From the NCBI GenBank assembly GCA_016783505.1, contig JADHWK010000002.1, positions 62,001 to 91,153 on the forward strand: a DNA stretch of 29,153 bases, in the 5' to 3' direction. This document shows, piece by piece, positions 7,626 to 29,153 of this stretch (position 1 is the stretch's first letter; the number at the start of each line of letters is the position of its first letter). The stretch comes from Candidatus Zhuqueibacterota bacterium (lineage in GTDB: Bacteria; BS750m-G25). The position numbers and the translations under genes are program-made. The notes beneath the pieces are model-generated. The model ran no database searches and was not told where the DNA came from. It saw only the letters and a program-made list of their open reading frames with translations.

Positions 7626-7996
7626 TCAATTGCTCTGCACGATTGAGCTATGGAATCAAAGCTAAAATGGGGCTATAAAGTGTCTAATTTGTGGAAGTTT
7701 GTCTATCTGAATTACTTAAAATGGGAGAATTTTGGGAGAATTATTTAGCAAAAAGTCAAGTCTTTAATATGGTAACTTCTGAGCCGATTCCCGTAGGTGC
7801 TCAGGGACCGAATAAGTGTAAATCAATACTGTTAATAATTTGCTATGTCCCAAAAGGTCTTTTTGTTCAAACCATCCTCTGCTTGTAGGAAGCTAATAGG
7901 TGACCGAAATACAGTAGGGGAGGGTTTTTATACTATTTATATTCACACCTTTGATAAGAACACATCGGATTAAAATATATTATGGGAGTGAGGACA

Positions 7997-9553
7997 TCAT
8001 TTGCTATTTAGATTTTTATCATGTATATATGCTATAATATCACCAATGGCTCCAACCGCAATGCTAAATCCCCAAGAGTTCCATACTCCCTGCGGATTCT
8101 TATCAAACAAAGCATAATCCATATATAAAGCACTTACGAGTTGTATCCCCCATACAATTTTATATACTGGGGATTGTTCACCTATACTAATTCCTTCTGA
8201 AGGGAAAGGAGCCATTATAGGAAATAAACCACAAAACCCATTAACAAGCAAACCGGATATAGTCCCATCTACATAAGCAAAATGTTCGGGTATTTCTGAT
8301 TCATCTTTTAAAAGCGCCGTGCTTCCCCAATATGTTGGTCTGACTAAACCCAGCTCCTTGGGCTTTGGATATGCGTTGATTTGCCCCACTTTTTCGGATT
8401 TTTTCAACGTAAAATCGAGAATTTTGGAATCATTAGGTAACATCTCAATTTGTTTCTCTTCTGAAGGATATCCAGAAAGGTTAACTCTGATTGTATGCCG
8501 CCCCACCGGCACTGAAGTGGACAACACCGTCTGTCCCTTCTTCACCCCATCCACATAAACATCCGCCCCCTCGGGAACAGAAGTTACCAGCAACTTCCCG
8601 GGCAGCCCCTCAAGGGTTAACGAAACCCGGGTTGTCTGTTCATAATAAACTTCAACCTCCTTTTCAGATTCTGTATAATTTTCCTTAACGCCTTTGAGGC
8701 GATGCTTTCCCACCTGAACCGCCTCCAGCTTTTTCGGGGCCTGCCCCATATAATTTCCGTCAAGGTAAATCAGAGCACCGGTAGGACTTGTTTTCACATC
8801 AATGAAACCGGTCTGAAGGGAAAGGAAGCGTTTAATCTTATTTGTCTCATCTTTATTCACAAGAACGACTTCATTGATAGTAGCATAACCTTTTTTTGTA
8901 ATAGTAAGGTTGTGCCGTCCGGTAGTTGTTTTCAGGGTCTGCGGAGAAAGTCCCTGCTCCTGGGCGTCTAAGAAAATACGGGCTCCCGAGGGGGTCGTAG
9001 TTATTTCCAGAGCACCGTAAGCTAACTTCTTTGTCGGCGGCTCACCAAACCTGGTGGTTGGTGGCGGAACGGGTTCCCCTCCCACCAGATCAATAGCCGC
9101 CTTCCTTATCCCCGTTTTCATCACGTCCTCAATTCCGCCCTCAATATCTTCGGTGGACTCCCCCAAAATGGCAGAGGTTTCCACATCAATTAATCTTAAG
9201 TCTATGGAATACAAGTTCCCTACCTTGCTGATGCTCCCCCCTACCATCAGTTGCACACCAAGGATTTCACCCGCCTGAACGATGCATTCAGAGGAGGTAC
9301 AGCCCTTCTGCTGAAAGCCCATTTCCGTTAGAATTTCATCCATCTTCCCCCGCTCCAAAACGGTAAACCGCCGGGTGCCGATCAACCCAGAACGGAGCCT
9401 CTCGGTCAACGCCCGCACCTCAGTCTCCGAAACCCCAATAGCATCCAAATCCAGCACTGCCAGGGTTTTCTTCTCCTGCCCATAAAGAATAGATGATATA
9501 TTAACAATTATGGCAAGGGCAATCCCAAAGTTCAATAGAACTTGCTTGAGCAT
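7997..9553 (-). CDS. Secreted CsgG/FlgO-like domain plus three PEGA domains
   Basis: LAVLDL...FTVLER..MD.IL.E..FQ..GC...C...G.ILG; three repeats of L.I.T.P.GA.I.LDG...G..P. Confidence 0.85.
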   Translation of the reverse strand: MLKQVLLNFGIALAIIVNISSILYGQEKKTLAVLDLDAIGVSETEVRALTERLRSGLIGTRRFTVLERGKMDEILTEMGFQQKGCTSSECIVQAGEILGVQLMVGGSISKVGNLYSIDLRLIDVETSAILGESTEDIEGGIEDVMKTGIRKAAIDLVGGEPVPPPTTRFGEPPTKKLAYGALEITTTPSGARIFLDAQEQGLSPQTLKTTTGRHNLTITKKGYATINEVVLVNKDETNKIKRFLSLQTGFIDVKTSPTGALIYLDGNYMGQAPKKLEAVQVGKHRLKGVKENYTESEKEVEVYYEQTTRVSLTLEGLPGKLLVTSVPEGADVYVDGVKKGQTVLSTSVPVGRHTIRVNLSGYPSEEKQIEMLPNDSKILDFTLKKSEKVGQINAYPKPKELGLVRPTYWGSTALLKDESEIPEHFAYVDGTISGLLVNGFCGLFPIMAPFPSEGISIGEQSPVYKIVWGIQLVSALYMDYALFDKNPQGVWNSWGFSIAVGAIGDIIAYIHDKNLNSK

Positions 9554-9641
9554 AAATGCCCTCCTTTTTTATCATTCATTTAGATTAGTGAAAGCTATAT
9601 TTTAATATAGCAATTAATTATTAAAAATCAAGTAAAATTTC

Positions 9642-9679
9642 AAAAAACAAAAAGCCTACTCAAGATGAATGAATAGGCC
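9642..9679 (-). repeat. Terminator-module repeat, copy C (partial)
   Basis: 38 bp identical to 11299-11336; minus-strand hairpin GGCCTATTCA/TGAGTAGGCT followed by a U-tract. Confidence 0.85.
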
Positions 9680-9808
9680 CTGACAATAAGAAAAGCTAAG
9701 CCCCCTATTTACGGATTTTATGACTTAGCCTTTTCAGTCCAATCAAATTGTCAACGAAAATCTAAAGTCAAATTTTTCTTTTCGGACAGCGTAACCCCTA
9801 CTTCATTC

Positions 9809-10321
9809 CTAAGACGATTGTCGTATCTTGTTGACTAATATATTGAAAGCATCTTTTTGACTACTTATTTTAAGATCGTCAATACTCCCTGATCTATTTT
9901 CTGGTAATTCAGAAATTGGATAAACCTGCCCGATACTACCACTTTTTATATGGTCCCAAAACTCTTCAGGTGGTTTCACAGTCCGTTTGTCCCAATCCCC
10001 ATGATGAATTAAGACGCCACTGGGATGGGCAGTTGTGCCTACAAAAGCTAACCCAAAGGGTTGTTGGTCAATTGCTTTTTCCATGTAGTCTACTCGGTTT
10101 CCATTAGCCATATAATAAATGGTTCCATTATAACTTTGCGAACCAGAAGCTAAAACCAAAACACTATCATACTTCTGCTTTAGAGATTCAGTAATAATGT
10201 CTGGTAACCTTCCAGGCTCGACAATTCGATATTCGTTTGTTGGACAAAGACTTTCCCATTCTTCTCTTGATTCACCCGATGTATCAAACCAACTATATTT
10301 CATTTTGGTCTTTTTCTTCAT
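9809..10321 (-). CDS. Hypothetical protein (cassette-like)
   Basis: 170-aa ORF with GAGGGG RBS, starting just downstream of a GTTACGG core site. Confidence 0.7.
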   Translation of the reverse strand: MKKKTKMKYSWFDTSGESREEWESLCPTNEYRIVEPGRLPDIITESLKQKYDSVLVLASGSQSYNGTIYYMANGNRVDYMEKAIDQQPFGLAFVGTTAHPSGVLIHHGDWDKRTVKPPEEFWDHIKSGSIGQVYPISELPENRSGSIDDLKISSQKDAFNILVNKIRQSS

Positions 10322-10359
10322 AATTAGCCCCTCTTCTCATTGTATATTATGGTATTTTG

Positions 10360-10387
10360 CCGTAACTATAATTAGTGTGGGTTAGCC
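10360..10387 (-). other. Truncated attC or attC/attI-like hybrid site
   Basis: Minus strand GGCTAAC-ccacactaattata-GTTACGG directly after the stop of 10404..11015. Confidence 0.45.
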
Positions 10388-10403
10388 ACCATCCTAAACC
10401 TAA

Positions 10404-11015
10404 TTATTCAAATGCATCTTCAATTGCCTTTTTCTTTTCAACTTCTTTTTTTACTTCCATGAGTTTTTCAACAGTAAGGCCTTCTCGTAAAATCAAAACA
10501 TCATCATAATCAAAATATAAGGTCTCCGGCTTGTGATTGATGTATTCGTTTCTAGTTCGAATTTTACCAAAGCTTAAAACAAATTGGTGTCTTTCTTTAT
10601 TTTGTGATAAGAATGAGGCCGTAACAAGGCAGGGTTTCCAGGATGAGGGAAAAGAACTATGCCAATCATCCCCCAATTTGAAATATCCTCTTAGTCTGAA
10701 ATCTCCAATTGTTTTTTCCAATTTAACTTCCATTTCAATTGCCTTATTACGCCATTCAATATACTTATCAATCAAAGCTGTAAATATTCCTCTGTCTAAT
10801 TTATCTAATTCATAAGCGACAGTGGTAATAAATTCTTTAAAATATATGGATACCTTATCTTCTTTAATATCATACCTTAAATCAAGGTTCCTTTCACCGA
10901 GAGTTTTCCAAACATCATTATAATAATTTCCTTTTACAATTAAGTAGCGTTCTTGACCAGCAAACAAAAGACAATTGAATAAAAGCATTAGGGATAATAT
11001 TGTTTTATTTTTCAT
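10404..11015 (-). CDS. Hypothetical secreted protein (gene cassette)
   Basis: 203-aa ORF, signal peptide, AAGGA RBS, lies between the attC at 11041 and the site at 10360. Confidence 0.75.
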   Translation of the reverse strand: MKNKTILSLMLLFNCLLFAGQERYLIVKGNYYNDVWKTLGERNLDLRYDIKEDKVSIYFKEFITTVAYELDKLDRGIFTALIDKYIEWRNKAIEMEVKLEKTIGDFRLRGYFKLGDDWHSSFPSSWKPCLVTASFLSQNKERHQFVLSFGKIRTRNEYINHKPETLYFDYDDVLILREGLTVEKLMEVKKEVEKKKAIEDAFE

Positions 11016-11040
11016 TTGCTATTTCCTTCTATCTAATGCG

Positions 11041-11102
11041 TGCTAACGGATTAGCTCACATTCCCGGCGGCGTTTCGCCGTCCGGTACAGCGGGGATTAG
11101 AA
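11041..11102 (-). other. Integron attC site
   Basis: TTCTAAT-CCCCGCTGTACCGGACGGC-GAAAC-GCCGCCGG...GTGAGCTAATCC-GTTAGCA; GC-rich palindrome in AT-rich DNA. Confidence 0.75.
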
Positions 11103-11170
11103 AGCAAAGACATAAACTCATCCTATCATCCTATTACTTCTGGTGGGGGTTATTAATAATCAATTTTGCT

Positions 11171-11188
11171 TTCTAACTCGTAATTATC
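11171..11188 (-). other. attI-like simple site
   Basis: Minus strand GATAATTACGA-GTTAGAA, about 20 bp downstream of a promoter; the bases after its G pair with the R'' side of the next attC. Confidence 0.45.
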
Positions 11189-11206
11189 TCGATTCAATCC
11201 TTTTCT

Positions 11207-11235
11207 AATTTAAATCATTCACAGGAAAAAGTCAA
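11207..11235 (-). promoter_or_regulatory. sigma70-type promoter facing the cassettes (Pc-like position)
   Basis: TTGACT-17bp-TAAATT. Confidence 0.6.
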
Positions 11236-11390
11236 GCTTTTAATAAGGTAATTTCTGAATTAATCTAATCCCAGATTTGAGTAAAAGTCTTATATTAAAA
11301 AAAACAAAAAGCCTACTCAAGATGAATGAATAGGCCTTGTTTAATAAAAAAGGAGGATTTTGGGAGAATTGACCCTGTTTTTATGGCTAA
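11226..11390 (-). repeat. Terminator+promoter module repeat, copy B
   Basis: Colinear similarity with 13045-13212 along the whole length. Confidence 0.85.
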
Positions 11391-11464
11391 TACCTACGGA
11401 TTAGAAGTCCGTTTGTCGTCTCAATCAATACTAGCCAATAATCACTGAGAGTAATCAGGGCAGG

Positions 11465-11749
11465 TTACATTTCAGAAATCATTTTGTCAAAACGGTCTAC
11501 TGTTACTGCAGGAGATGTGGAAAATGAGATGCCCGTTATTTGACTCAAAGAAACAGATGCTTTCATTGCTTCCTTAGTATTAGGGAAATCCGCTATAATA
11601 ACAAGATCGTATTCTCCTAATAGGGCATACATCGATTTTACTGCACCACCATACTTCTCGATGAGACTGTTACCCCTTTTTGTGCGTTCGGCACTCATTC
11701 CCTTGATAGCCTCCGATGTATACTTTCCAAACATAAAAAATGTTGACAT
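11465..11749 (-). CDS. GYD domain protein
   Basis: 94 aa; KYT..A...GG.V..MY.LLGEYDLV.I.DFP. Confidence 0.9.
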   Translation of the reverse strand: MSTFFMFGKYTSEAIKGMSAERTKRGNSLIEKYGGAVKSMYALLGEYDLVIIADFPNTKEAMKASVSLSQITGISFSTSPAVTVDRFDKMISEM

Positions 11750-11852
11750 GTTTGACCCCTCTAAATTATTAACGGTTATTGAAATGAATTAATATATTAA
11801 ATATAACAATTATTTTAAAAAAAGCAACAATAAAATTGGGATTTCAGGAAAT

Positions 11853-11883
11853 AAAAAACCCCGCATTTAGCGGGGTTTGGTTT
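11853..11883. terminator. Intrinsic terminator after the proteasome-like gene
   Basis: AAACCCCGC-ATTTA-GCGGGGTTT. Confidence 0.8.
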
Positions 11884-11904
11884 ACCAATCAAGAAATCGT
11901 TTTA

Positions 11905-12804
11905 CTATTTAAAAACTATTTTCCTAAGTGCTTCTTTTAGCTCATCTACCCTTTTTGAAATTTTCCCCTTGTTATACTTTCCGTCTTTAATTTCAGGTTC
12001 CTTGTCTGATATATAAACTATTTGAGGATCTCCACCCACATAATCATCAATTTCTTCCCTTATCCAATAAATACAAGCTGCTATTCGAGAGACTATCACT
12101 TTACATTCAAGGGGAATTTTACCGTTATGCCGAGGAAAAAGATATTTCGCTAGTGTTCTGGCATAATCCCTTCCATGTCCAACTAAACAGGCATATTTAA
12201 TTTTCGACCCAAATCCACGGGGGCCAATTTCGTATAATCTCGCATCTCCTTTGCTTAGTTCAGATAAACCCCCCAATATAAAGTGTAAAGGGTATTCTCC
12301 AATTTTGGGCCCGTATCTTTCTTCGGTTTTCTCTACCAAGTCCTCCGCTATCATTTTGATTGAAAGTAAAGAATTAATTTTCCCCTCTTGAATGTTTGCT
12401 ATCAATGTTTTTTCAAATATTTCTATGAAATCATCTATTACCCCTATTATTCCAGCACTGGCAAATATAATAGGAGCTCCTTCCACAGTAGTAATAGTTT
12501 TTACTTTCTTTTCATAATCAGTCTCTCCGCCCCTCATTGTTTTTGTATCTCCCCCAAGAACAATTCCATCTTTTCCTCTCACTCCTATTATTAGAGTAGA
12601 CTTTCCCAGCATGTCCTCACCCAGCATTTTCTTATATAACCACCTCTTATATTTTTCCTTATTAGCTTCATTTAGTTCATCCAAAAGTTGAATTTCTTTT
12701 GGATATGCTATTTTAGGAAAAATCTTCTCTAATCCTTCTATCTCTTTCTTGATTTTCTTCTTTCCCCCAGCATAATTACCAACATCCATCTTCCGCAATT
12801 CCAT
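11905..12804 (-). CDS. Proteasome beta-subunit-like Ntn hydrolase with N-terminal extension
   Basis: TLIIGVRGKDGIVLGGDTK (Thr1/Asp17), KKV, SAG, FILGG, LYEI.P.G, GHG..YA, DDYVGG. Start set at MELRK behind a GGGGGAG RBS (track start 12825). Confidence 0.8.
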   Translation of the reverse strand: MELRKMDVGNYAGGKKKIKKEIEGLEKIFPKIAYPKEIQLLDELNEANKEKYKRWLYKKMLGEDMLGKSTLIIGVRGKDGIVLGGDTKTMRGGETDYEKKVKTITTVEGAPIIFASAGIIGVIDDFIEIFEKTLIANIQEGKINSLLSIKMIAEDLVEKTEERYGPKIGEYPLHFILGGLSELSKGDARLYEIGPRGFGSKIKYACLVGHGRDYARTLAKYLFPRHNGKIPLECKVIVSRIAACIYWIREEIDDYVGGDPQIVYISDKEPEIKDGKYNKGKISKRVDELKEALRKIVFK

Positions 12805-13044
12805 TCTCTCTCCCCCTTCTTTCATTTATAATTATCTATATCTATATTTCTAGGCTTTATTCAAATTCCCATTTGCTAATTTCAGATCATCCCAATCAAA
12901 AAATAAATAATTCCAGGCTTTTCTAAATCATATGGCAAAAACCAGACCAATTTTAAGTGTAGCTGGATCGCTATTTTTGAATGAACTAAAGGGCAAGTTT
13001 TGCCTGGCATGTTTTGAACGAATTCAATATACTAACTTTTTAAA

Positions 13045-13212
13045 AAAAAGTCAAGCCTTTAATACCATAATTTTTGAACTTATCTAAATCCAGTTTTGGA
13101 GGACAGCCAGATATTTAATGAAAAACAAAAAGGCCCACTCAAGATGAATGAATAGACCTTTTTTCATAAAAACGGACAATTTCTGGACAATTGACCCTTA
13201 TTTTATAGCTAA
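13045..13212 (-). repeat. Terminator+promoter module repeat, copy A (adjacent to the groEL terminator)
   Basis: Hairpin GGTCTATTCA/TGAGTGGGCC with U-tract, then TTGACT (13049-13054)-17bp-TATATT (13026-13031). Confidence 0.85.
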
Positions 13213-13240
13213 AAACCCCTGTCGGCTTGACAGGGGTTTT
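13211..13240 (-). terminator. groEL terminator
   Basis: AAAACCCCTGTC-GGCTT-GACAGGGGTTTT perfect stem. Confidence 0.9.
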
Positions 13241-13252
13241 CATTTTGTGGAT

Positions 13253-14872
<1,620 letters not shown>

Positions 14873-14915: not shown

Positions 14916-15188
14916 CTATTCTTCCACTATGCCTAAAATATCATCCCTTTTTACAATTAGATATTTCTCCCCCCCGATTTCCACATCCGTTCCCCCGTAC
15001 TTGGCATAGATGATCCGGTCGCCCTTCTTGACCACCTCTTTTAACTCCTCATCATTACCCACCGCCACCACATCCCCCATCTGGGGTTTCTCCTTGGCGG
15101 TGTCTGGTATAATGATGTTGCCTACCTTCCTCTTTTCCTCCTCCAGGGGTTTTACCACTACCCGATCGTCAATCGGAATTATCCTCAT
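14916..15188 (-). CDS. groES: Co-chaperonin GroES (groEL-proximal copy)
   Basis: [41 protein letters not shown]. Confidence 0.97.
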
Positions 15189-15355: not shown

Positions 15356-15673
15356 TTAATCCACCACTACCCCGTGAATATCGGACCGATCCAGAATCAA
15401 AAGTTTCTCCCCCTCTACTTCCACCTCGGTCCCACCGTATTTAGCATAGATGAGCCGATCCCCAACTTTCACCAATTTACTAAATTTCTTCCACTTCTTT
15501 TTCTCCTCCTCTTTGGGCTCCCGATCATTACCCATAGCGATGACTTCCCCGATCTGGGGTTTCTCCTTGGCGGTGTCAGGAATTATGATTCCACCCACCT
15601 TTTTCTCTTCTTCCTCAAGAGTCCTTACCAAGACCCGTTCATCCAAGGGTTTAATTCTCATTTTTCCCTCCAC
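15356..15673 (-). CDS. groES: Co-chaperonin GroES (second copy, with charged insertion)
   Basis: [40 protein letters not shown]; start may be the internal MRIKP. Confidence 0.95.
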   Translation of the reverse strand: MEGKMRIKPLDERVLVRTLEEEEKKVGGIIIPDTAKEKPQIGEVIAMGNDREPKEEEKKKWKKFSKLVKVGDRLIYAKYGGTEVEVEGEKLLILDRSDIHGVVVD

Positions 15674-19317: not shown

Positions 19318-20292
19318 TCATTGCTGTACATCCTTTAATGCTTTAGTCAATTCGGGCACAACCTGGAACAGGTCTCCCACGATACCGTAGTCGGCCACCT
19401 TGAAGATGGGGGCATCCTGGTCTTTATTGATGGCCACGATGACCTTAGAGGATTTCATCCCCGCCAGGTGTTGGATGGCCCCGGAAATGCCGCAGGCGAT
19501 GTATAGATTGGGCACCACCACCTTTCCGGTCTGACCCACCTGGTCATCGTGGGTCCGCCAATCGGCGTCTACTGCCGCCCGGGAGGCGCCCACTACCCCC
19601 CCCAGGGCATCGGCCAGCTCTTCGAGAATGCCGAAGTTTTCCGGACCTTTCAACCCCCGACCGCCGGAAACGATGATGTCGGCCTCGGTGAGATCAACCT
19701 TAGCCCCAGCCTTTGCCTTCATTTCAACAACCCGGGCCCGAACTACCCCTTGAAGATCTACGGCGACCTTATTGATGGGGACGGCCTTTCCATCCATTTT
19801 GTCGGGAGGGGGAAACATCTTGGGCCGGAGGGTGATTATCTTTATCTTTGAATTTAGTTGGATGGTTGCGGTTACCTTTCCGGCGTAAACAGGGCGTTTG
19901 ATTACCACCTTACCGTTTTCCGTTCCTATCCCGATACAGTCCTGAACGACGCTGGCCCCCACCCGGGCAGCCACCCGGGCAGCCAGGTCCCGGCCCATAG
20001 CGGTGGCCGCCAGTAGTACTACTTCCGGGGCCTTTTCCTCGATGATCCGGGCCAGGGCTTGGGTATATCCCTCGGTGGAATAGGCTCCCAATTCATCGGA
20101 TTCGGCAACCAGAACCTCATCGGCCCCATAATCCCCCAAGGAACCAGCGTAGGCTTCTACTCCGGAACCGACCACCGCTGCCGCCAGGGGAACCCCCAAA
20201 CTATCGGCTAACCCCTTGCCCGCTCCGAGGGCCTCATAAGCTACCCCACGAAAGTCTCCGTTTCTTCGCTCAGCAAAAACCAAAACCGCCAT
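19318..20292 (-). CDS. etfA: Electron transfer flavoprotein alpha subunit
   Basis: [51 protein letters not shown]. Confidence 0.98.
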
Positions 20293-20302
20293 TTTAAATT
20301 TC

Positions 20303-20353
20303 CTAAATCACATTCACCTCTTCATTCAGCAACCTTACCAACGAGGGCACCTC
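20303..20353 (-). pseudogene. etfB 3' tail remnant (copy 1)
   Basis: Manual translation EVPSLVRLLNEEVNVI*; stop 10 bp before the etfA ATG; resembles the EtfB C-terminus (LV.LL.EEAKVI). Confidence 0.7.
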
Positions 20354-20529
20354 TAACGTTAGTGAAAAATGGATTTAAACTAAAAACAATTTTGAAAACG
20401 AACCCAAGTCAAAAGACCGAAAACAGCGAAGTAACCTACCGTTGGCAGAATTTAAAATTGAAATTGATGGTGAAAGGTCGCAGCCAGTGCATTGAGAGTT
20501 TCGGCAGCCATTTTGTATTATTATTGTAA
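20351..20529 (-). other. Degenerate attC-like site at the island boundary
   Basis: TTACAAT...AAAATGG ... CCATTTT-TCACTAAC-GTTAGAG; arms weak; coincides with the GC step. Confidence 0.45.
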
Positions 20530-20592
20530 AAAAATATTCAATAAATTTAAAATTGTTAATTTAGCGAATAGTAATAACTAAAATAGATATTT

Positions 20593-23500
20593 TCATAATA
20601 CATCTTCCAAATTTATTGCTTTGAAATTTTTAGTATCTTCGGATGCAATCTCTGATAATTTTTGTCGAAATAGATCAAAAAAATCGAAATTACAAGTAGT
20701 AATAATAATTTGTTTTCTGGCTCGAGAAAGACCTATAATAATGTCAACAAAAGATAATGTATTCATTTCATCCATTTGTTGTACGGGATCATCAATTAGA
20801 ATGGTTTGAAGAATTGATATGTTTTGATATATTACTCTGGTTAAAAATATTGATAAGGCTAGAATATTTAACTGTGCTTCACTCAAATAAGAAGAAGGTG
20901 TATACTCAATTTCACCAAAATAATTCTTAAGTAATATATATAAACTTCTTTTTCTTTGATCCTTAGACATTATTGGTTTCAATTGAACTTCATTAAAATA
21001 TTCATGTCGGATAAATTTTTTATATATTTCATTGATTAAAGGGCTATATTGGACTAAGCTTTTTTTAAATGCAGAATAGGATACAGACGATAACTCTTTA
21101 TTTAACTTTCTGAGATTATTATAACAAATTTCCCATCTTTTCTTCTCGTAACTATATTTTTCTATTCTGTTTCGAATATTCTCTGATTCTTCTTTTGTTC
21201 TAATCAGCCCAAAGAGATTGTTCAGATCTTTTATTTTTGAAATTAATTTATAATATTTTTCTTGATCATATACATCTATTTTTAAAGGATCAATACCATC
21301 CTTAATAGAATATTTATCTGAAAGATTATATCTCTGTATTAAAGATTCCATCTCTACTAGATCTTTCTCAATTTCATCAATCCTTTGTTGTAAGATAACC
21401 TTATATTTTAGTTGTTCTTCTAGTTCTTCTAATTCATCTTTATATTCTTTTAGATCAGTCTCTATTTGGTTTATTTCATTATCAATATTATCAATATTTA
21501 AAATTTTATCTTCAGGAATAACCTTAATTATTTCTTCTATTATATTTGATATTGTATCTCTAGTTTCTTTGTGTTTATTTTTGTAATATTCATAATTTAG
21601 ATAATGAATTTTATCAACTATTAATTCTGTTTCATTTCTAATAGATTCGACATCATATTTTTTTATTTCATTTTTTAATTCTAGTAATTGGGAATTAGAT
21701 TTATCAAGCAGTGTTTTTATTTCTTCCTCGGTAATTGATTTCTTTTTACAAACTTTATTTAACAGTTCTTCAAATTCAATTATATCATTTTTCATATCAG
21801 AATTTTCTTTTTCTAATTTTTCCCTTTCCTCTTTTTTGCGCTGAATTATATTTTTTTCTTCTTCTATTGCTAATTTTTTATATTTTTTGTTTATATTAAA
21901 GATAAAATCTTTTAGTTCTTCTCTATATTTTCCATCAGTAATTTGTTTAATTATGTTCTCATTTAACTCATTTTTATCACTATAAGAATTCCCACAACAT
22001 GGACATACAAATTTATCCATTACGTTAAAGTAATCTGTTTTATTTATAATATTTTTTATAACATCAATATCATTATAATCTATGTCCTCAGATTGAATCA
22101 AACCTTTAATTTCATTCTCATGACGATCTAAATAAAAGTCGATTTCCGAAATTATTTTACTATTTTTACTCAATAGTATTTTTTTTACTTCAATTTCTTT
22201 CAGCCTCTTTTTGATATATAGGAAATTCTCTATATTAGCTACTAAATCATTAATTTTCCTACTTAAATCAATTTTACTTTTTTTAAATTCAATCAATTTT
22301 TCCTCGAGTAGTTCTTTCTTTTTAAGTAAGGCTTCATTCTCTTTTCTTTTTATTTCAATTTTTTCTCTTAAATCTTTTTCTTTTGAATATAAGTCTTTAA
22401 ACTCATTAAACCTTGTCTTGAAATCATTCAATATTCTATTATTTTCATTTAGTTCTTTCATTTTACCATTTAATACTTCAATTTTATATTTATTATGCTC
22501 AATAGTTCTAATCTCATTTTTTATGCTACTTTGAACGTTTTCTATATAATAAAGAAAATTATCTGCTTCAATATTAATATTTAGACTACTTAATATGCTA
22601 CTTATTTTTATGTATAATTGATTCAATTTATTAATTGCTCCTTCATGTGTCTTTTTCTTTTCTAATTCATTATTCAATATTTTCATTAAAAGATCACAAG
22701 AAATCATATAGTTATCAATAGGTAATTGACAATCCGTTATACTCTCATCTAACTTTATTCTAATTTCATTTTTTAATTTATCTATCAATTTTTTATATGC
22801 TATAATACCGTATTCTTGGTCTATCTTATGACCTTTTTTTTCAATCTCGGATCTAGTTCTTGGTCCATATTTATGACTAATACTCCTAATATTAGATTTA
22901 TATTCTTTTATCAAATCATCTAAGAGATTAATTTTTATATGTTTAATTTCTGAATATACTCTTGTCAATCGACGTTTTAAAGCTTCAATTTTTCCAAAAC
23001 CAAACATTTCGGAAATTAAATCATATCTGTTTTTTCTTATCTCGTTTTCATCACTTGTATTAACACCATATATAAAATGTCTAATAGAATGTTGCCCAAG
23101 GAAGTGTGTATGTAATAGTATATCCAAATATTCTTTCTTTTTTATTAATTCCTTATTATCAGTTAAGAAAGTTATAATATCCTCATTTTTAACTTGTTTG
23201 TTGTTTAAGAATAAAATGCATTTATTTTTTTGTATTTTTGTTTCAATTTTAAATATATCATTCTTTGATATCCCTGTTATGTCTATTAGTGCTTCATCTT
23301 CCATTGATTCACAATTTATTAAGGCAGAGTATTTTTTCTTAGTTTTTGGTTCCATGTCTGGATCATATTCCAGTCGGTTTATTTTATTAAATATTGAGAA
23401 TTCAACAGCATCAACTATTGAAGTTTTACCTCTTCCATTTTTACCATAAATCACTACTACATCACTATCTAAATCTAATTTTATACTTTTAAAGCATCGA

Positions 23501-24168
23501 AAATTTTTTAACTCTAAAGATTTTATTCTGCTTATTTCTACAGACAGTTCTTCTTTTATAGGTGATACTAATTTTTTTTGCTTTTGCAATTTATTTTTAA
23601 AGTCTTCAGAAAATAACCAGCTATATTTTTCACTTTTTTCTATCTCCTTAACGATTGCCGGAGCTTTTTTTGAAATTAATAAGCTTCTAAGATCTCTATC
23701 AGATATAGTATCCTCTATTAAAGGGATATATTCTCTAAGAACTTTATTTTTATCTGAAATCCAGACTGGTATTCTGTTAGCTAACGACTTTTCAATAATT
23801 TTTTTATTATACTTGTCAGGTAATTCAATAAATACTTTTCTGAAAAAATACTCATTACTTTCAGCCAGAGATAATTCTTCAAATAAATCATTTTCCCGCA
23901 CAACTTTTTCGGGAATTACATAGATAAGATATTGATTTATTTTATTTTTTTCCTTCAGATATAGTTCCCTTTGTAATCCAATCCACGATTTGATAAGTTC
24001 AATATTGTCTGTTATTTGGCAATATAATGAGCTGAATAAATTTTCAGCTTTGAACAGTATATGATCGCTCTCTTCTTCCATTCTATACAGATTATACCCA
24101 AATCTTTTATCACGGCGGATGAAGTCTTCTGCTATATCACCAATTTTAGATAAATTGAAAGCATTCAT
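20593..24168 (-). CDS. Rad50/SbcC-like SMC ABC ATPase with extra ~200-aa N-terminal region
   Basis: LELKNFRCF, Walker A GKNGRGKTS, Q-loop HFLGQ, long coiled coils, Zn-hook CPCC, signature LSEAQ, Walker B/D-loop ILIDDPVQQMD. Confidence 0.9.
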   Translation of the reverse strand: MNAFNLSKIGDIAEDFIRRDKRFGYNLYRMEEESDHILFKAENLFSSLYCQITDNIELIKSWIGLQRELYLKEKNKINQYLIYVIPEKVVRENDLFEELSLAESNEYFFRKVFIELPDKYNKKIIEKSLANRIPVWISDKNKVLREYIPLIEDTISDRDLRSLLISKKAPAIVKEIEKSEKYSWLFSEDFKNKLQKQKKLVSPIKEELSVEISRIKSLELKNFRCFKSIKLDLDSDVVVIYGKNGRGKTSIVDAVEFSIFNKINRLEYDPDMEPKTKKKYSALINCESMEDEALIDITGISKNDIFKIETKIQKNKCILFLNNKQVKNEDIITFLTDNKELIKKKEYLDILLHTHFLGQHSIRHFIYGVNTSDENEIRKNRYDLISEMFGFGKIEALKRRLTRVYSEIKHIKINLLDDLIKEYKSNIRSISHKYGPRTRSEIEKKGHKIDQEYGIIAYKKLIDKLKNEIRIKLDESITDCQLPIDNYMISCDLLMKILNNELEKKKTHEGAINKLNQLYIKISSILSSLNINIEADNFLYYIENVQSSIKNEIRTIEHNKYKIEVLNGKMKELNENNRILNDFKTRFNEFKDLYSKEKDLREKIEIKRKENEALLKKKELLEEKLIEFKKSKIDLSRKINDLVANIENFLYIKKRLKEIEVKKILLSKNSKIISEIDFYLDRHENEIKGLIQSEDIDYNDIDVIKNIINKTDYFNVMDKFVCPCCGNSYSDKNELNENIIKQITDGKYREELKDFIFNINKKYKKLAIEEEKNIIQRKKEEREKLEKENSDMKNDIIEFEELLNKVCKKKSITEEEIKTLLDKSNSQLLELKNEIKKYDVESIRNETELIVDKIHYLNYEYYKNKHKETRDTISNIIEEIIKVIPEDKILNIDNIDNEINQIETDLKEYKDELEELEEQLKYKVILQQRIDEIEKDLVEMESLIQRYNLSDKYSIKDGIDPLKIDVYDQEKYYKLISKIKDLNNLFGLIRTKEESENIRNRIEKYSYEKKRWEICYNNLRKLNKELSSVSYSAFKKSLVQYSPLINEIYKKFIRHEYFNEVQLKPIMSKDQRKRSLYILLKNYFGEIEYTPSSYLSEAQLNILALSIFLTRVIYQNISILQTILIDDPVQQMDEMNTLSFVDIIIGLSRARKQIIITTCNFDFFDLFRQKLSEIASEDTKNFKAINLEDVL

Positions 24169-25933
24169 TTAATGTCTCCTTTATATTATCAACTTTTTTA
24201 TAGCTTTGGCGTGCATTTAATTTATTAATTAGATAGCAAAGAGTTAAAACATATGGATATTTAGGCTTTGTTATTTTATTATAACTGTCGGGTCTTTTCA
24301 TTGTCTTGACAATTTTATTAAGGTTTAAAAGTTCATTAAATCTTTTAGGTTCACCGTTCCAATCCAAATATAAAGGACCTAATCTCTGTAATAGAACTAT
24401 TTGCATATCTCTATACTGAGAAAGTAATAATTCACCTTTTTCTTGTCTAAATTGTAAGTCTTGCATATTATCACAATCAATTATAGAAATAAAAATATCA
24501 TCGCTCTTAATCTTATTTTCTTCAATTTCAATACCTTCATAATTTGTATTAAGCATAGCAAGTGAAACAAAAAAATATTTAAAAGTTCCTTTGTCTTCGT
24601 CCCATAAGTCGCAATTAATAGCTCTTTTGTTTTCTTCTCGAATAAATAATAGGGTTCTAATGACTTCACATGGTCTTTGCATAAATAAATTACAAAACAT
24701 ATTTTCATACATTTCTATATTGCTGAAATATTGCCTTAAGAGATATTTAGAAAATAATGTTTCTATAAAGTCAGAAAAATCATCCAATAAAATTTCTTTA
24801 AATTCATATATTTCTGGAATTTGTTTTATTTCTGTTAATTCAAAATTAGTATTAATCTTTTCTAAACCAGGTTCCTCTATGGGAATTACGTTTTCATCTT
24901 GAAATCGAAATGTTGTATCGTTCATGTTTAAAATAAATGATATCACGCCCGGATATCTTAGTCTCCAAAGTATATACTGAAGGCTGTCTTGTTCTCCAGC
25001 TTCTTTTTTGAATGACTTCCAAGCAAACAAATTCTCTGCTCTCATATCCTTTAATGTTTCAGGAAATCTACCTCTATTCATTACTGCGACATTTGAATTC
25101 CTAAAGTGTTTTACATCTTCTGTATCTACACTGTTTATAGAGCACACCATTGTTTTTGTAGTATCAATTGTATGACTCTTGAAGTAGAGACTTTTTATTA
25201 TTTTAGTGTAGTGATTTCCAATTGGATGTTTATTGTTTTGAATTAAAAACATGAGATCAATTTTCTCATGTCTTGGATTTTTATAAAAATAGTCTAAATC
25301 TTTAAACAAAGTATATATTATAGGCAGTTTACCTCTTTCAAGTATGAAATCTGAACAGATTAAAATCAGTATAGTATATACGCCTAGGTTGAAAATATAT
25401 ATTATTTTGGAAATGAATTGTTGTGTTGTTTCATAACGACTTTTGCTTAATTTTGGTTGGTAATAAATATAATTTTTCCCATTTTTGTCTTTAATCAGAA
25501 TCGCTGCAGTATTGACAAATTTAATATTTCTTCCAAAATCTACTTCGTTAAAATCATCTTTACTATTTGAATTTGAAATTAATTCTAAAAATTGGTTTTT
25601 AGTTATTTGTTCTAAGCCAAAAATAATTATGGTATTTGTATTTATTTCTCCATTTTTTAATTTCACAATCATTAATTCAGCTGCTTCCATACTTACTGAA
25701 AGTTCTGGAAATACTATAAAATTTGGATTACCTTCTGAAAATATATTATTATTATATTTATTTAGTACATTTTCAACTATGTGAATATTATTTTGTTTTT
25801 CCTCTTCCTTAATTTTATAAATTCCATCTTTTTGACATTGTTCTGGCATTTGTACTTTTACAATGCCAATTCGGTTTCTATTAAAATATTCAATATTTGG
25901 TATTTTGATGTCTTTTATCTTAAATTCATTCAT
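24146..25933 (-). CDS. Carbon-nitrogen hydrolase (nitrilase-fold) domain fused to an unknown C-terminal region
   Basis: FIVFPE77LSV, VNTAAI, QPK161LS..E168, LIC193SDF: Glu-Lys-Cys triad in canonical contexts; overlaps the SMC gene by 23 bp. Confidence 0.8.
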   Translation of the reverse strand: MNEFKIKDIKIPNIEYFNRNRIGIVKVQMPEQCQKDGIYKIKEEEKQNNIHIVENVLNKYNNNIFSEGNPNFIVFPELSVSMEAAELMIVKLKNGEINTNTIIIFGLEQITKNQFLELISNSNSKDDFNEVDFGRNIKFVNTAAILIKDKNGKNYIYYQPKLSKSRYETTQQFISKIIYIFNLGVYTILILICSDFILERGKLPIIYTLFKDLDYFYKNPRHEKIDLMFLIQNNKHPIGNHYTKIIKSLYFKSHTIDTTKTMVCSINSVDTEDVKHFRNSNVAVMNRGRFPETLKDMRAENLFAWKSFKKEAGEQDSLQYILWRLRYPGVISFILNMNDTTFRFQDENVIPIEEPGLEKINTNFELTEIKQIPEIYEFKEILLDDFSDFIETLFSKYLLRQYFSNIEMYENMFCNLFMQRPCEVIRTLLFIREENKRAINCDLWDEDKGTFKYFFVSLAMLNTNYEGIEIEENKIKSDDIFISIIDCDNMQDLQFRQEKGELLLSQYRDMQIVLLQRLGPLYLDWNGEPKRFNELLNLNKIVKTMKRPDSYNKITKPKYPYVLTLCYLINKLNARQSYKKVDNIKETLNECFQFI

Positions 25934-25988
25934 AATATTTCTTCAATAATTGTTATTCATAAAATCTATTGTTTAATATTAGAAGGCT

Positions 25989-26122
25989 ACCTAACATTAA
26001 GGATTTTATCCGTAGTTGAGCTAAAAAAATAATACTCTAAAGTTACTCAAGATCAGTATTTTTAAAAATCTCCACAAAACTTCATTCTGTCACGCTCAAT
26101 TGCGGATAAAATCCAGTTGAAT
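25989..26122 (-). other. Integron attC site
   Basis: R'' ATTCAAC and R' GTTAGGT (both consensus); arms GGATTTTATCCG..TTGAGC / GCTCAA..CGGATAAAATCC; 134 bp. Confidence 0.8.
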
Positions 26123-26271
26123 GGAGCCGCATACATGGTAATGCTATGGGGATTTAATCCGAGGTTCTCTGTTTATTATAATCGTTAATATCCAAAAAAA
26201 TCGGTAAGGCTCCATATTTACAATTGCAACCGACAACTGTCATTATATCCAATAAAGCAAAAGTATAAAAG

Positions 26272-26331
26272 TTAAATCACCTTCGCCTCTTCCTTCAACA
26301 ACCTCACTACACGTTGCACTTCCCCTCCCAT
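26272..26331 (-). pseudogene. etfB 3' tail remnant (copy 2)
   Basis: Manual translation MGGEVQRVVRLLKEEAKVI*; GC-richer patch similar to 20303-20341. Confidence 0.7.
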
Positions 26332-26347
26332 CACACCTTTTCCGTAA

Positions 26348-26436
26348 GAATAACGAAAAGCTTAGCTGCCGCCGAGCGAAGCGAGAGAACCGAAACGCGT
26401 AGCGTTTCGGGGGTCAGCTGCAGTGCATTGTTCGAT
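26348..26436 (-). other. Integron attC site
   Basis: ATCGAAC-AATGCACTGCAGCTGAC...GGCAGCTAAGCTTTTC-GTTATTC, starting 1 bp after the GIY-YIG stop; internal hairpin CCGAAACGC/GCGTTTCGG; 89 bp. Confidence 0.85.
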
Positions 26437-26437
26437 T

Positions 26438-26809
26438 TTAGCTTGTTGGGGTGCTTGGTAGATTCACCAGAATAGATGTTCCTCCGGGATCAACTTTATT
26501 ACATTCAGTACTGTAATGATCATATAGATATTTTTCGATTCCATCACGATCGGACTGTTTACCAACCTTTGCATAATGAAATCCTGAGGTGTATTTCACA
26601 TTTTCTTTTATGCAATTATTTTTTTCCTCATCACTCAAGTGCTCCAATAATCGATTCTCAAGATTTGAGGCCTGTCCTATATAGAAGGCTTCCCATCGGT
26701 CACTCTTATATTTTACCCATAAAAGATAAACACCAGCTGACGTCGGTACGTATTTCTTTACTTCGCTCTCATTGTATGGGGTATGAAATGACGACCATTC
26801 TATGTTCAT
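26438..26809 (-). CDS. Stand-alone GIY-YIG nuclease (gene cassette)
   Basis: AGVYLLW...FYIGQASNLENRLLEH...E...CN; AGGAGG RBS; attC on both sides. Confidence 0.88.
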   Translation of the reverse strand: MNIEWSSFHTPYNESEVKKYVPTSAGVYLLWVKYKSDRWEAFYIGQASNLENRLLEHLSDEEKNNCIKENVKYTSGFHYAKVGKQSDRDGIEKYLYDHYSTECNKVDPGGTSILVNLPSTPTS

Positions 26810-26822
26810 TTTTCCTCCTTTC

Positions 26823-26956
26823 TATTAACGGATATGGCATCACCTGCCCAAAGGCTAGGAAGCACCTAACCTACTGATAGGATACTCTGAACTTGGATTT
26901 TAAAATGGTTGGATTTGCACAGAGCCCTTTTGGTCAGGTGAATGCTATGGTTAGCT
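26823..26956 (-). other. Integron attC site
   Basis: AGCTAAC-CATA-GCATTCACCTGACCAAA...TTTGGGCAGGTGATGC-CATATCC-GTTAATA with one unpaired base in the L box; 134 bp. Confidence 0.85.
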
Positions 26957-27008
26957 GCTTATTGTTATTAAAGGAATTAACTTTATCAGATGTAATATAA
27001 AAATAATT

Positions 27009-27545
27009 TTAATTCCCCAATAAAATTTGACTCGAACGTAGATGTAGTAATTCTAAAATATTATCATTCAATATTAAGTCTGTTTTTTTTCTACCTGAAT
27101 GATAGCCTTCAATTGTTGAAGATGGTTGATTTGATAATATTTTTTCTTTCTGACCGTAATTACCAGTCTTTGGATCTCCCCAAATTCTAAAAAATCCTTT
27201 TACTTGATAACTGGAAAATTTTAAACCTTCTAATCCTATATATATATCACCACCATATTGATTGATTGGTACAGTTCTCAGGCTATAATAAGTTGAATAC
27301 GGTAAAAAGAATAAGTGATTATTTATTAAAACATAATATTGATAATCTTCACTATCGAACAAATTCGAAAATTTATCTTTTTTAGGTAAAATCCCATTGC
27401 ATTCATAATTTAATTTTTTATATGTAAATTGTAGCTCAACAATAAAAGGACAAATTACATTTGGAATAGAAGTAATAAAAATATGATCACCAGTTGAAAT
27501 ATTAAATTTGAATTGAGAGCTACGAACAAAACCAGAAGGCGGCAT
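27009..27545 (-). CDS. Hypothetical protein
   Basis: 178-aa ORF, AAGGAG RBS, last gene of a tight three-gene run before an attC. Confidence 0.7.
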   Translation of the reverse strand: MPPSGFVRSSQFKFNISTGDHIFITSIPNVICPFIVELQFTYKKLNYECNGILPKKDKFSNLFDSEDYQYYVLINNHLFFLPYSTYYSLRTVPINQYGGDIYIGLEGLKFSSYQVKGFFRIWGDPKTGNYGQKEKILSNQPSSTIEGYHSGRKKTDLILNDNILELLHLRSSQILLGN

Positions 27546-27560
27546 TTTTACACTCCTTTT

Positions 27561-27983
27561 CTAAAAAATTTTATAAAACTTTTTTAAAAAACTAACTCGA
27601 GATAAATTCGAAACTAATGCAATAAAATACATTGCAAAACTAAGAACCATTAATGCATCATGAGTTGTTTTATCAAGTGGAAGTTTATTTGCAATTCCGT
27701 AAAATATTAAACCTATTAAAATTGAAAAAATAAGAAAAATTATACCATATTTTTCTGAGTCAATAAATTCTCTAACAACTGATTTAATTTTTTCTAACAA
27801 ATCATTACAATAGTCACAATTTCCCTGATAAGTTGAAATTTTTGTTCTTAGTTTTCTCAAATAAAAACCGGCATACAATAAAACAACAACGACAATAATT
27901 ATTGCAATAGAATGATTATAACAAAAAGTTCCTAAAAGTTTTATAAATTCTAAAAAATCTTTATTACTAAAGTAATCATTCAT
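27561..27983 (-). CDS. Hypothetical membrane protein (about 3 TM)
   Basis: Three hydrophobic segments; overlaps the upstream gene's stop. Confidence 0.7.
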   Translation of the reverse strand: MNDYFSNKDFLEFIKLLGTFCYNHSIAIIIVVVVLLYAGFYLRKLRTKISTYQGNCDYCNDLLEKIKSVVREFIDSEKYGIIFLIFSILIGLIFYGIANKLPLDKTTHDALMVLSFAMYFIALVSNLSRVSFLKKFYKIF

Positions 27984-29025
27984 TTTCTACCTTGTATTTT
28001 TCAATCGATGTTAATAATAAATATAAGATAGTTGAACCAATAACACTAAAAATGGCAGCAGATGAATAAGGATTGATAATCTCATTATTTATTATAAGAG
28101 GAATTAAACATAAAACAACTCCCCCAATAATACTTACATAAGCTGATAATCTGTTTAACTTTTTTGAAATGAAGATTAAAATTATTGATGGGAATAAAGC
28201 GAGTTGAAAAGCATAGAATGTATATAGAATATTATCAATACCAGAAACAAATTTTCTAACTACAACATAAAGAATAAAAAATATGAATGTATATGCAATT
28301 GTCCACATTCTGGATTTAGAAAGCTGAGCTTTTTCAGAAATATTACCCTTAAGAATAATATCATAATATGTAGTATATGAAATTGAAGAAATTAAACTAT
28401 CCAAGGTCGAATACATTATAGAAATCATGCAAAAGATGAAAATAAAAATATATATATTGTCTATTAAAGATACGGAGCTAAATGAAGCAGCAGCAAGATT
28501 CTGAAGTGCAGTCCATGCATCTGGAAGATTAAATCCTACATAGCGAAGTGACATGCCAAAGAAAATTGCTATTATCCAAGTTATTGGCGAATAGATTGAA
28601 ATGAAAGAAATAGTCTTACTTAGTTCTTTCCTTAACTTTTCATCATATTTAAAAGATGCTAACCTTTGCCAGCCAGAAATGTCAACTATTTGCCAAAGGC
28701 CATTGGCAAGAAGAAGGCTAATTAAGGATAGTTTTCCAAGTGAAAAAACATTAAAGAATTTCTGTTCTTTCCAAAAGAATGAAAATGAATCTTTTATATT
28801 TAAGTTACTACTTAGGTTAACAATAATAAAAATTGTTCCAATTAAAAAAGCAAAAAGACTTAAATAAAGTGTTGTAGAATACTTTTTAGGAAATACGTTT
28901 GGATTAATAGTGTTAAGTTTTTTAAAAAGAATATTTAATGCTAATAGGCTAAAAAAAGATAGAACAAATAGAATTACTCCAGTATAAACATAGCCATTGT
29001 TTATTACCTTTATATGTATTATCTT
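27976..29025 (-). pseudogene. 5'-truncated sodium:solute symporter (SSS)-like membrane protein
   Basis: Frame stays open upstream of 28554 (LANGLWQIVDISGWQRLAS; later SIMYSTLDS) to an in-frame TAA at 29044-29046, with no standard start codon in between. Confidence 0.65.
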
Positions 29026-29153
29026 GAGGGGGTGTTTACACTTTTATGTTATTGTTCTTTTTTGGGAACCTACTATTTTCTTTTAATAGGGTTATGAATC
29101 ACTGGTCGATAAAGCTTTCTTGCTCAGGTATATTTAACGAACAAAACCGTTTT
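29026..29153. mobile_element. Probable IS end (IS5/IS1182-like terminal repeat); element extends beyond the window
   Basis: GAGGGGGTGTTTACACTTTT lies where the symporter frame loses coherence; a minus-strand frame (..KRFCSLNIPEQESFIDQ*) runs in from the window edge. Confidence 0.4.

Follow-up and report, generated by a model that had tools for sequence, protein, structure and literature searches.

Do two overlapping, AT-rich genes from a Candidatus Zhuqueibacterota bacterium make up a defence system of the Lamassu type, and if they do, which parts of such a system do they encode and how did they reach their present site? The genes lie in a stretch of 29,153 nucleotides (nt), called the window below, which forms the final 29 kb of contig C84 in a metagenome-assembled genome (MAG) of 2.5 Mb that is 59.9% complete. 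An earlier note, made from the letters of this DNA, had proposed a two-gene Lamassu or ABC-three-component (ABC-3C) system that pairs a nitrilase-fold effector with a Rad50-like SMC ATPase and sits on an integron cassette. Lamassu systems occur in roughly 10-15% of prokaryotic genomes (10.1101/2022.05.11.491447 and PMC12663957), and a review names a C-N hydrolase among the effector domains of LmuA, as an item in a list (PMC10586767). We find that the locus is probably a horizontally acquired Lamassu (ABC-3C) system of the long type with a predicted anti-phage or anti-plasmid role, and that the pair is a rare, divergent member of a Lamassu subtype that is catalogued but uncharacterised.

The effector LmuA and the ATPase LmuB

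The two genes, designated here by the names of their Lamassu counterparts, are the following:

24146-25933, minus strand: lmuA, open reading frame (ORF) for a 595-aa effector with a predicted nitrilase-fold N-terminal domain and a Lamassu C-terminal docking domain
20593-24168, minus strand: lmuB, ORF for a 1191-aa Rad50/SMC-like ATP-binding cassette (ABC) ATPase with an N-terminal extension; Pfam SMC_N/AAA_23

Their reading frames overlap by 23 nt, and the GC fraction across 21001-26000 is 0.23-0.28, compared with ~0.50-0.54 in the flanking core genes for a cpn60-family chaperonin (GroEL), an Hdr-like Fe-S protein, a BFN/UVR protein and EtfA. The two overlapping and very AT-rich genes of the earlier note are therefore real. 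The pair also shows the general hallmarks of Lamassu, namely an SMC/Rad50-like LmuB, an LmuA effector with a C-terminal domain encoded just upstream of lmuB, and co-occurrence of the two genes in an operon.

Both proteins are recognised by the PADLOC models of 2023. LmuB is matched end to end by the LmuB model PDLC03865 (E 6e-64, aa 214-1173, model positions 2-987 of 1007; 220 bits in a six-frame search, 215-220 bits across searches), and LmuA is matched by the LmuA model PDLC03850 (E 1.4e-23, aa 17-270, model positions 16-285 of 604). Although this second match by hmmscan does not run end to end, a profile-profile comparison (hhalign) of the LmuA clade with 40 canonical PDLC03850 members extends over 566 columns, C-terminal half included, with a probability of 100 and an E value of 4e-49, and so establishes homology to the family over its full length. 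The C-terminal region in which the earlier note had recognised no motif is real, and because the hhalign alignment covers it we identify it as the LmuA C-terminal domain of the PDLC03850 family. These matches remove most of the novelty, as the earlier note had cautioned they might, and make the pair a divergent member of a catalogued type rather than a new subtype. We take the PDLC03850/PDLC03865 pair to be the one that DefenseFinder calls 'Lamassu-Amidase', although no tool output showed that name.

Likeness to the catalogued type consists in the end-to-end LmuB match, the full-length LmuA homology and the shared Glu-Lys-Glu-Cys residues described below. The distance from it is considerable: identity to the canonical PDLC03850 type is 12-20% in LmuA and ~21% in LmuB, and hmmscan recognises only the N-terminal half of the LmuA encoded here. 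A word-based search returned eight full-length close relatives of LmuA (33-53% identity), and an exhaustive profile search among 1.84 billion proteins returned 318 representatives at E <= 1e-3 but just 14 at E <= 1e-30, which places this LmuA in a small, tight and rare clade within a wider family. All ten of the wider, ~600-aa relatives that were scanned match PDLC03850, four of them end to end, and canonical members cover model positions 5-603.

The LmuA features are these:

24890-25891, minus strand: predicted nitrilase-superfamily (C-N hydrolase) domain, LmuA aa ~15-348 (AlphaFold2 model, Foldseek, VIA-align, conserved residues)
25703-25705 (E77), 25451-25453 (K161), 25430-25432 (E168) and 25355-25357 (C193), minus strand: candidate catalytic residues, from conservation
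24149-24886, minus strand: LmuA C-terminal domain, aa ~350-595, presumed docking domain for LmuB/LmuC (hhalign; role by analogy with solved Lamassu complexes, 10.1101/2025.06.23.660979)

The intact nitrilase triad that had been read from the sequence, E77, K161 and C193, is present and invariant both in LmuA with its close relatives (9 of 9 sequences, E168 included) and in all 95 aligned members of the wider family, in which E168 and W444 of the C-terminal domain are each at least 90% conserved. The AlphaFold2 model of the N-terminal domain (mean predicted local distance difference test score, pLDDT, 73.9) tests as an alpha-beta-beta-alpha sandwich of the nitrilase superfamily: Foldseek gave a probability of 1.00 against amidases, formamidase and NadE glutaminase domains, and VIA-align gave Z scores of 15-16.7 against nitrilase-superfamily structures (217-243 residues, root-mean-square deviation 3.2-5.0), with 162 chains at Z >= 8. 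Fold and predicted Glu-Lys-Cys chemistry are thereby shared with aliphatic amidase, formamidase AmiF, Nit2, the NadE glutaminase domain, Nta1 and the nitrilase domains of defence-associated reverse transcriptase (DRT; UG1/UG5) proteins. The PADLOC model for DRT reverse transcriptase-nitrilase proteins in fact matches LmuA weakly (E 0.001) and two relatives at 1.6e-5 to 1.8e-4. In contrast to this group, LmuA has no Pfam CN_hydrolase match and is fused to a Lamassu docking domain, and the locus has no reverse transcriptase. Judged by predicted fold and conservation, then, LmuA is a nitrilase-superfamily domain with a Glu-Lys-Glu-Cys set, joined to a C-terminal domain typical of PDLC03850-type LmuA proteins.

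Several results weigh against this assignment. None of the nine sequences (LmuA and its eight close relatives) had any Pfam match at E <= 0.1, CN_hydrolase included, and CN_hydrolase did not match any of them even at E <= 1; NCBIfam models gave no match to LmuA; a profile built from the nine sequences found nothing among PDB sequences at E <= 10; and the C-terminal domain scanned by itself matched no Pfam or PADLOC model. Because Pfam and PDB sequences yield no match, the nitrilase call rests on the predicted fold and the conserved residues, and E77, K161 and C193 are put forward as catalytic by conservation rather than by residue-wise superposition. The single-sequence match to PDLC03850, as given above, ends before the middle of the model. 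Finally, the literature searched (with supplements and the primary ABC-3C paper outside the search) contained no paper that treats an amidase or nitrilase effector of Lamassu.

LmuB, for its part, belongs to the Rad50-like ABC ATPases and combines long coiled coils with a single zinc hook. All of the SbcC/Rad50 ATPase motifs claimed for it could be located, including the Q-loop (aa 355-359) and the following:

23530-23598, minus strand: linker, LmuB aa ~191-213, between the N-terminal domain described below and the ATPase head (poorly conserved columns; pLDDT <50 at aa 196-214)
23422-23445, minus strand: Walker A GKNGRGKT, aa 242-249 (G242, G245, G247, K248 and T249 invariant in 6 of 6)
21994-22005, minus strand: zinc hook CPCC, aa 722-725, the sole CxxC in the protein (C722, P723 and C725 invariant in 6 of 6)
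20788-20886, minus strand: signature-like LSEAQ, aa 1095-1099, and Walker B ILIDD, aa 1123-1127 (S1096, Q1099, D1126, D1127 and P1128 invariant in 6 of 6)

Long-type Lamassu is characterised by a Walker B of the form hhhhDD, a single CxxC hook and an LmuB of ~800 aa or more (PMC12663957). The LmuB encoded here has a Walker B of ILIDD, one CxxC, and a core of 978 aa once the N-terminal domain is set aside.

Could the pair instead be a housekeeping SbcC/Rad50 repair ATPase that happens to lie beside an unrelated metabolic amidase? The P-loop region of LmuB is Rad50-like, and a homolog is publicly named 'SMC family ATPase' or 'DNA repair exonuclease SbcCD ATPase subunit', but equivalog models for Rad50 and SMC proteins score only 20-33 bits against cut-offs of 567-1087 (Rad50: 23-33 against 700-1087), RecF equivalogs likewise fall far under their cut-offs, and PDLC03865 by comparison fits at full length. 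As the earlier note had observed, no SbcD/Mre11 gene lies beside lmuA-lmuB among the neighbouring ORFs of the window, which encode EtfA, the BFN/UVR protein, a small GIY-YIG protein and products without a family. The pair has about half the GC content of its host, travels together in hosts of 29-56% GC and in one provirus, and is rare. We consider this explanation so improbable as to be close to negligible; LmuB is not a housekeeping SbcC, and the Lamassu/ABC-3C assignment with a nitrilase-fold effector and a Rad50-like zinc-hook LmuB is upheld.

The pair is also conserved as a pair. In all six related loci with downstream DNA (L005-L010), lmuA is immediately followed by an lmuB of ~1190-1218 aa, a count that leaves out three further loci that are too short or truncated; local GC in the related loci is 0.29-0.56, and the closest relative is a Bacteroidales MAG locus at ~33% GC. 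Together with the low GC relative to the host, that relationship marks the pair, by its composition and sequence, as foreign and horizontally acquired. A further instance of co-occurrence is L020, an IMG/VR provirus record (G403) rated complete by CheckV, in which positions 7875-13365 carry an overlapping canonical-type pair with an LmuA of 626 aa and an LmuB of 1209 aa whose core is ~21% identical to ours. L020 resembles our pair in the overlapping two-gene layout and in an N-terminus on LmuB of the kind considered below. It was the one canonical PDLC03850 locus found in viral contigs, with a profile query (a single-sequence query found none), and plasmids gave no match to canonical PDLC03850 loci. 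The pair type was present in one of 401 sampled genomes of the phylum of genome G002, that one being the centre genome itself; in the genome collection, the window's own phylum is this genome only.

Source annotations give little hint of a defence role. In L006 (9784-13386) and in P0004 the LmuB homolog is called 'SMC family ATPase' or 'SbcCD ATPase subunit' and the LmuA homolog 'hypothetical protein', with no defence label, and the nine neighbours in L005 and L006 bear the names DUF6602, DUF4760 and hypothetical protein only. With such public labels, systems of this kind are easily overlooked. A further locus, L011 (105-986), encodes an LmuA homolog that matches aa 2-211 only, in a 294-aa frame, and is perhaps a decayed copy.

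The N-terminal domain of LmuB

The first 213 residues of LmuB lie outside the span of the PDLC03865 model, and scanning this region by itself with PADLOC gave no match. Most of it is taken up by one domain:

23599-24168, minus strand: MComp1-like domain, LmuB aa 1-190, probably a fused LmuC (middle component), from sub-threshold MComp1 matches, size and position

The domain is 41-53% identical in all six relatives with sequence there, which equals or exceeds the conservation of the core, and its invariant polar residues are E103, R110 and K111. The lmuA-lmuB locus contains no separate gene for a middle component. LmuC proteins of one kind belong to Pfam family MComp1 (PF20289, 'ABC-3C middle component 1', here MC1), whose gathering cut-off is 27.3 bits. 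When relatives were scanned singly, five of seven matched MComp1 at 21-25.9 bits, always with protein residues ~55-118 against profile positions ~16-76; a six-frame genome search placed a match in the same part of the window's LmuB (25.4 bits, E 2.2e-5, at 23809-24012), and in each of four records the top MComp1 match genome-wide was the LmuB N-terminus (E 4e-7 to 8.5e-4). Matches at the equivalent place were also obtained in two fragments and in L020 (aa 73-122, 26.1 bits in the record), whose N-terminus has no BLAST similarity to ours. Since every score lies below the cut-off, we call the domain MC1-like and do not assign it to MComp1.

Free-standing MC1 genes offer a comparison. Among the 401 sampled genomes, four such genes were the only MComp1 matches at E <= 1e-4; they encode proteins of 186-242 aa between lmuA and lmuB, which is the size and the slot of the LmuB N-terminal domain, and they share with it a motif block, E-x-N-E-Y-F-F-[KR]-K. 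The corresponding three-gene, long-type loci (L025-L028, Bacteroidota) resemble ours in the order LmuA, (MC1), LmuB and in a single CxxC. They differ in that MC1 is a separate gene, that LmuA has 400-444 aa and no BLAST similarity to our LmuA at E <= 1, and that LmuB is similar to ours in the head lobes only.

From these resemblances we judge it likely, with some reserve, that LmuC (type MC1) is present in the system after all, fused to LmuB, whose N-terminal residues 1-190 it forms. The earlier description of a two-gene system would then hold for the number of genes and probably not for the number of components, given the sub-threshold evidence that LmuB aa ~1-190 resembles a fused LmuC. A natural fusion of this kind, if true, constrains the position and copy number of LmuC; in three Lamassu structure papers, the passages that speak of a fusion cover engineered constructs only.

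The competing account, which we regard as possible but distinctly the weaker of the two, is a two-component, LmuC-less Lamassu resembling type I, in which LmuB aa 1-190 is an unrelated domain with a restriction-endonuclease fold, which might bind DNA as an added module or act as a second effector, a nuclease. Lamassu systems that lack LmuC are known and make up type I, clade S (PMC12663957). The AlphaFold2 model of the domain (pLDDT 74.8) has the topology alpha-beta3-alpha-beta-alpha-beta, which is restriction-endonuclease-like, and its nearest solved folds are nuclease domains at Z 7-9 (McrC, Can2, EcoT38I, BstEII and the FokI cleavage domain), to which Foldseek adds the Cap4 nuclease domain, EndoMS and Shedu. 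The alignment, on the other hand, holds no conserved D...(D/E)xK set among its invariant polar residues, and Z scores of 8-9 are middling on the tool's own scale and denote a common arrangement. Equally difficult for an unrelated domain are the repeated MComp1 matches to one region in nine sequences, the distant L020 among them, and the agreement in size and position with free-standing MC1. Free-standing MC1 may itself share a restriction-endonuclease-like fold, in which case the two readings are perhaps compatible.

A number of observations nonetheless tell against a fused LmuC. No MComp1 score reaches the Pfam cut-off (the best, in P0155, is 26.5 bits against 27.3), and hmmscan of the window's own LmuB N-terminal domain against MComp1 gave no match. 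PADLOC's LmuC models matched one of seven members, at E 0.014. The reciprocal search, with a profile of the fused domain against all four genomes with free-standing MC1, returned nothing at E <= 10; hhalign to free-standing MC1 gave E 0.003-0.0055 at a probability of 7-10%, with a reversed control at E 0.39; and a purpose-built MC1 hidden Markov model could not tell real sequences from reversed ones. No solved LmuC turned up among the domain's structural neighbours, although the absence of solved Lamassu LmuB and LmuC chains from the sequence and fold searches provides no evidence on the fold.

Further searches were uninformative. Querying the ESM Atlas with LmuB aa 1-190 yielded nothing usable, and the profile of the N-terminal domain met only designed coiled coils among PDB sequences (E >= 0.26). 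A co-fold of LmuA aa 350-595 with LmuB aa 1-190 scored 0.00 against a mark of 0.32; it was run without controls and carries no weight either way. The only homologs of LmuC length were two fragments of 134 and 145 aa, one of them on an 845-nt contig, which we considered as free-standing LmuC proteins and rejected in favour of reading them as the fused protein in truncated form.

Proposed mechanism and target of the effector

How such a system would act can be sketched from relatives with solved structures. To our knowledge, the Lamassu members solved and dissected so far are of the nuclease type only. They include the type II Lamassu system DdmABC of Vibrio cholerae and Salmonella LmuACB, with cryo-electron microscopy structures from 2025, which are alike with our pair in having an effector N-terminal domain, a docking C-terminal domain, an SMC-like LmuB and a middle component, and with which we presume our pair to share the logic of a sequestered monomeric effector that is released on DNA-end sensing (10.1101/2025.06.23.660979 and PMC12663957). 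They differ in being of the short type (LmuB of ~600-650 aa with a Walker B ending in D-[QSTE], hookless in Vibrio), in their Cap4-nuclease (DNase) effector and in a separate LmuC within an A1:B2:C1 complex. We found no sequence-level match of the window's proteins to any solved Lamassu chain. If LmuC is fused to LmuB in our system, each LmuB dimer would bring two middle components, compared with one in the solved complexes.

In Cap4-type complexes, an LmuB dimer sequesters monomeric LmuA through the C-terminal domain of LmuA, DNA-end sensing releases it, and oligomerisation activates it (10.1101/2025.06.23.660979; PMC12663957). On this model, an LmuB dimer joined at the zinc hook would hold one inactive LmuA monomer via the LmuA C-terminal domain, and the LmuB heads would sense phage or plasmid DNA by its ends or by palindromic intermediates of its replication. 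Sensing would release LmuA, which would then associate with itself; oligomerisation would turn on C-N hydrolysis, and the active enzyme would destroy an essential amide-bearing molecule and so abort the infection. We know of nitrilase-superfamily enzymes as active only in the form of dimers or larger assemblies, and for this reason a switch by release and oligomerisation could work for LmuA. The whole sequence of sensing, release, oligomerisation and abortive infection is nevertheless inferred from solved Cap4-type Lamassu, and that the mechanism, the trigger and the abortive outcome are all drawn from other subtypes counts against its application here.

The fold does not name the substrate. 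The neighbours of LmuA are nearly tied over many branches of the superfamily (Nit2, aliphatic amidase, formamidase, the NadE glutaminase domain, N-terminal amidase and Lnt), and with scores so close a substrate cannot be read from them. Our leading guess is the amide of a small metabolite, such as NAD+ or glutamine. Action on a macromolecule, whether by deamidation of protein Gln/Asn or of an N-terminus (Nta1-like), by acyl transfer (Lnt-like) or on an amide of a cell-wall precursor, appears to us a minority possibility: a protein N-terminal amidase (5hyy, Z 15.7) and the apolipoprotein N-acyltransferase Lnt (Z 14.6-14.7) do score within ~2 Z of the top, but the small-molecule enzymes Nit2, aliphatic amidase, formamidase and the NadE glutaminase domain score equally, and we saw no membrane segment or lipoprotein context.

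A bolder proposal extends the small-metabolite target to the lineage. It holds that the whole amidase type possesses an LmuC-LmuB fusion that could dock two effectors symmetrically, and that the nitrilase-fold effector, oligomerising on release, kills by deamidating an essential metabolite, for example by converting NAD+ to deamido-NAD. We think it rather improbable as a whole. Symmetric docking of two effectors, if true, would be unlike the solved, asymmetric A1:B2:C1 complexes, and the nitrilase-fold effector, if read correctly, would be a new kind of abortive-infection enzyme. The clade in any case provides a compact and intact two-gene example in which to ask what an amidase effector destroys, and it tests whether the rule of sequestration as a monomer and activation by oligomerisation reaches an enzyme that is not a nuclease.

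The probable insertion site and other features of the window

The surroundings of the pair point to an origin different from the integron cassette of the earlier note. The final 39 nt of contig C84 are identical to the first 39 nt of contig C23, a unique overlap, and joining the two contigs yields an intact etfB ~11.4 kb from etfA. The split etfB-etfA operon spans window positions 19318-29153 and positions 40-3328 of C23. Between the two genes lie five copies of the 3' end of etfB, matching at 33, 40, 42, 42 and 45 of 45 nt, which bound four co-oriented units and lie, in window-continued coordinates, at 20298, 26267, 30001 and 31003, with the genuine end at 31679. The Lamassu unit is the one that adjoins etfA (window ~20343-26266). 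Its boundaries, and a further element next to lmuA, are as follows:

20298-20342, no strand assigned: etfB 3' end copy 1, 33/45 nt, ending 10 nt before the etfA start; lower boundary of the Lamassu unit
26267-26311, no strand assigned: etfB 3' end copy 2, 40/45 nt; upper boundary of the Lamassu unit
26001-26114, no strand assigned: 114-nt inverted-repeat element, 68 nt upstream of the lmuA start, with 21-nt arms that are 90% complementary

Because copy 1 ends 10 nt before the start of etfA, it resembles the original operon junction. The pattern of repeats is consistent with successive insertions at the etfB 3' end, each of which restored the gene. No recombinase was found in the etfB-etfA array.

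The idea of an integron gene cassette bounded by attC sites draws on real features of the locus. The pair forms a compact unit of foreign GC content that is bounded by repeats and co-oriented with small units, including units 3 and 4, whose small ORFs are putatively toxin-antitoxin-like, and the structured 114-nt inverted repeat adjoins it (DNA fold z -4.6 on the plus strand, -3.6 on the minus strand). The repeats that bound the unit, however, are copies of the coding 3' end of etfB and not hairpins, and the two attC-like sites proposed at 25989 and 20351 do not stand: the 41-nt stretches around them show no more folding stability than shuffled sequences (z -0.40/+0.04 and +0.20; a fold test, not an attC covariance model). 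What stands at 20351 is a palindromic word of 10 nt, located where an etfB 3' end copy has its inner edge, and near 25989 a distance of just 19 nt separates the words ACCTAAC and GTTGAGC. As for the inverted repeat, it occurs once in the genome and in none of the related loci; it is placed upstream of the gene, and its GTT/AAC words come in the wrong order. An integron integrase is absent from the window; genome-wide, at 59.9% completeness, none of 11 tyrosine-recombinase matches passed the integron-integrase cut-off (best 86.7 against 265 bits), none lay on C84 or C23, and no serine recombinase was detected. We accordingly rate an integron cassette as very unlikely and read the unit as bounded by etfB repeats.

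The unit that adjoins the Lamassu pair (26438-28554) contains a 123-aa GIY-YIG ORF with weak matches to PADLOC PDC-S14 (E 9e-7) and AT-rich ORFs at 27009-27545, 27561-27983 and 27976-28554, two of them membrane-like and none with a clear family. A promoter scan was uninformative (45 sites against 43.2 expected), and four terminator-like sites (1.4 expected) all lie within lmuA or lmuB. The window contains no tRNA gene and no match to an Rfam family.

Repeats are also present elsewhere in the window. An intergenic element of ~90-170 nt recurs at 61-88% identity (7717-7782, 9642-9733, 11215-11390 and 13034-13212), its copies at 9642, 11299 and 13121 being spaced by 1.6-1.8 kb. The stretch includes a part of ~34% GC (10001-13000) with family-less ORFs and a proteasome-subunit-like ORF (11905-12825), and, lying beside the chaperonin gene, it may be another insertion array. 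A direct repeat of 165 nt with 73% identity occupies 15024-15188 and 15497-15661, 473 nt apart.

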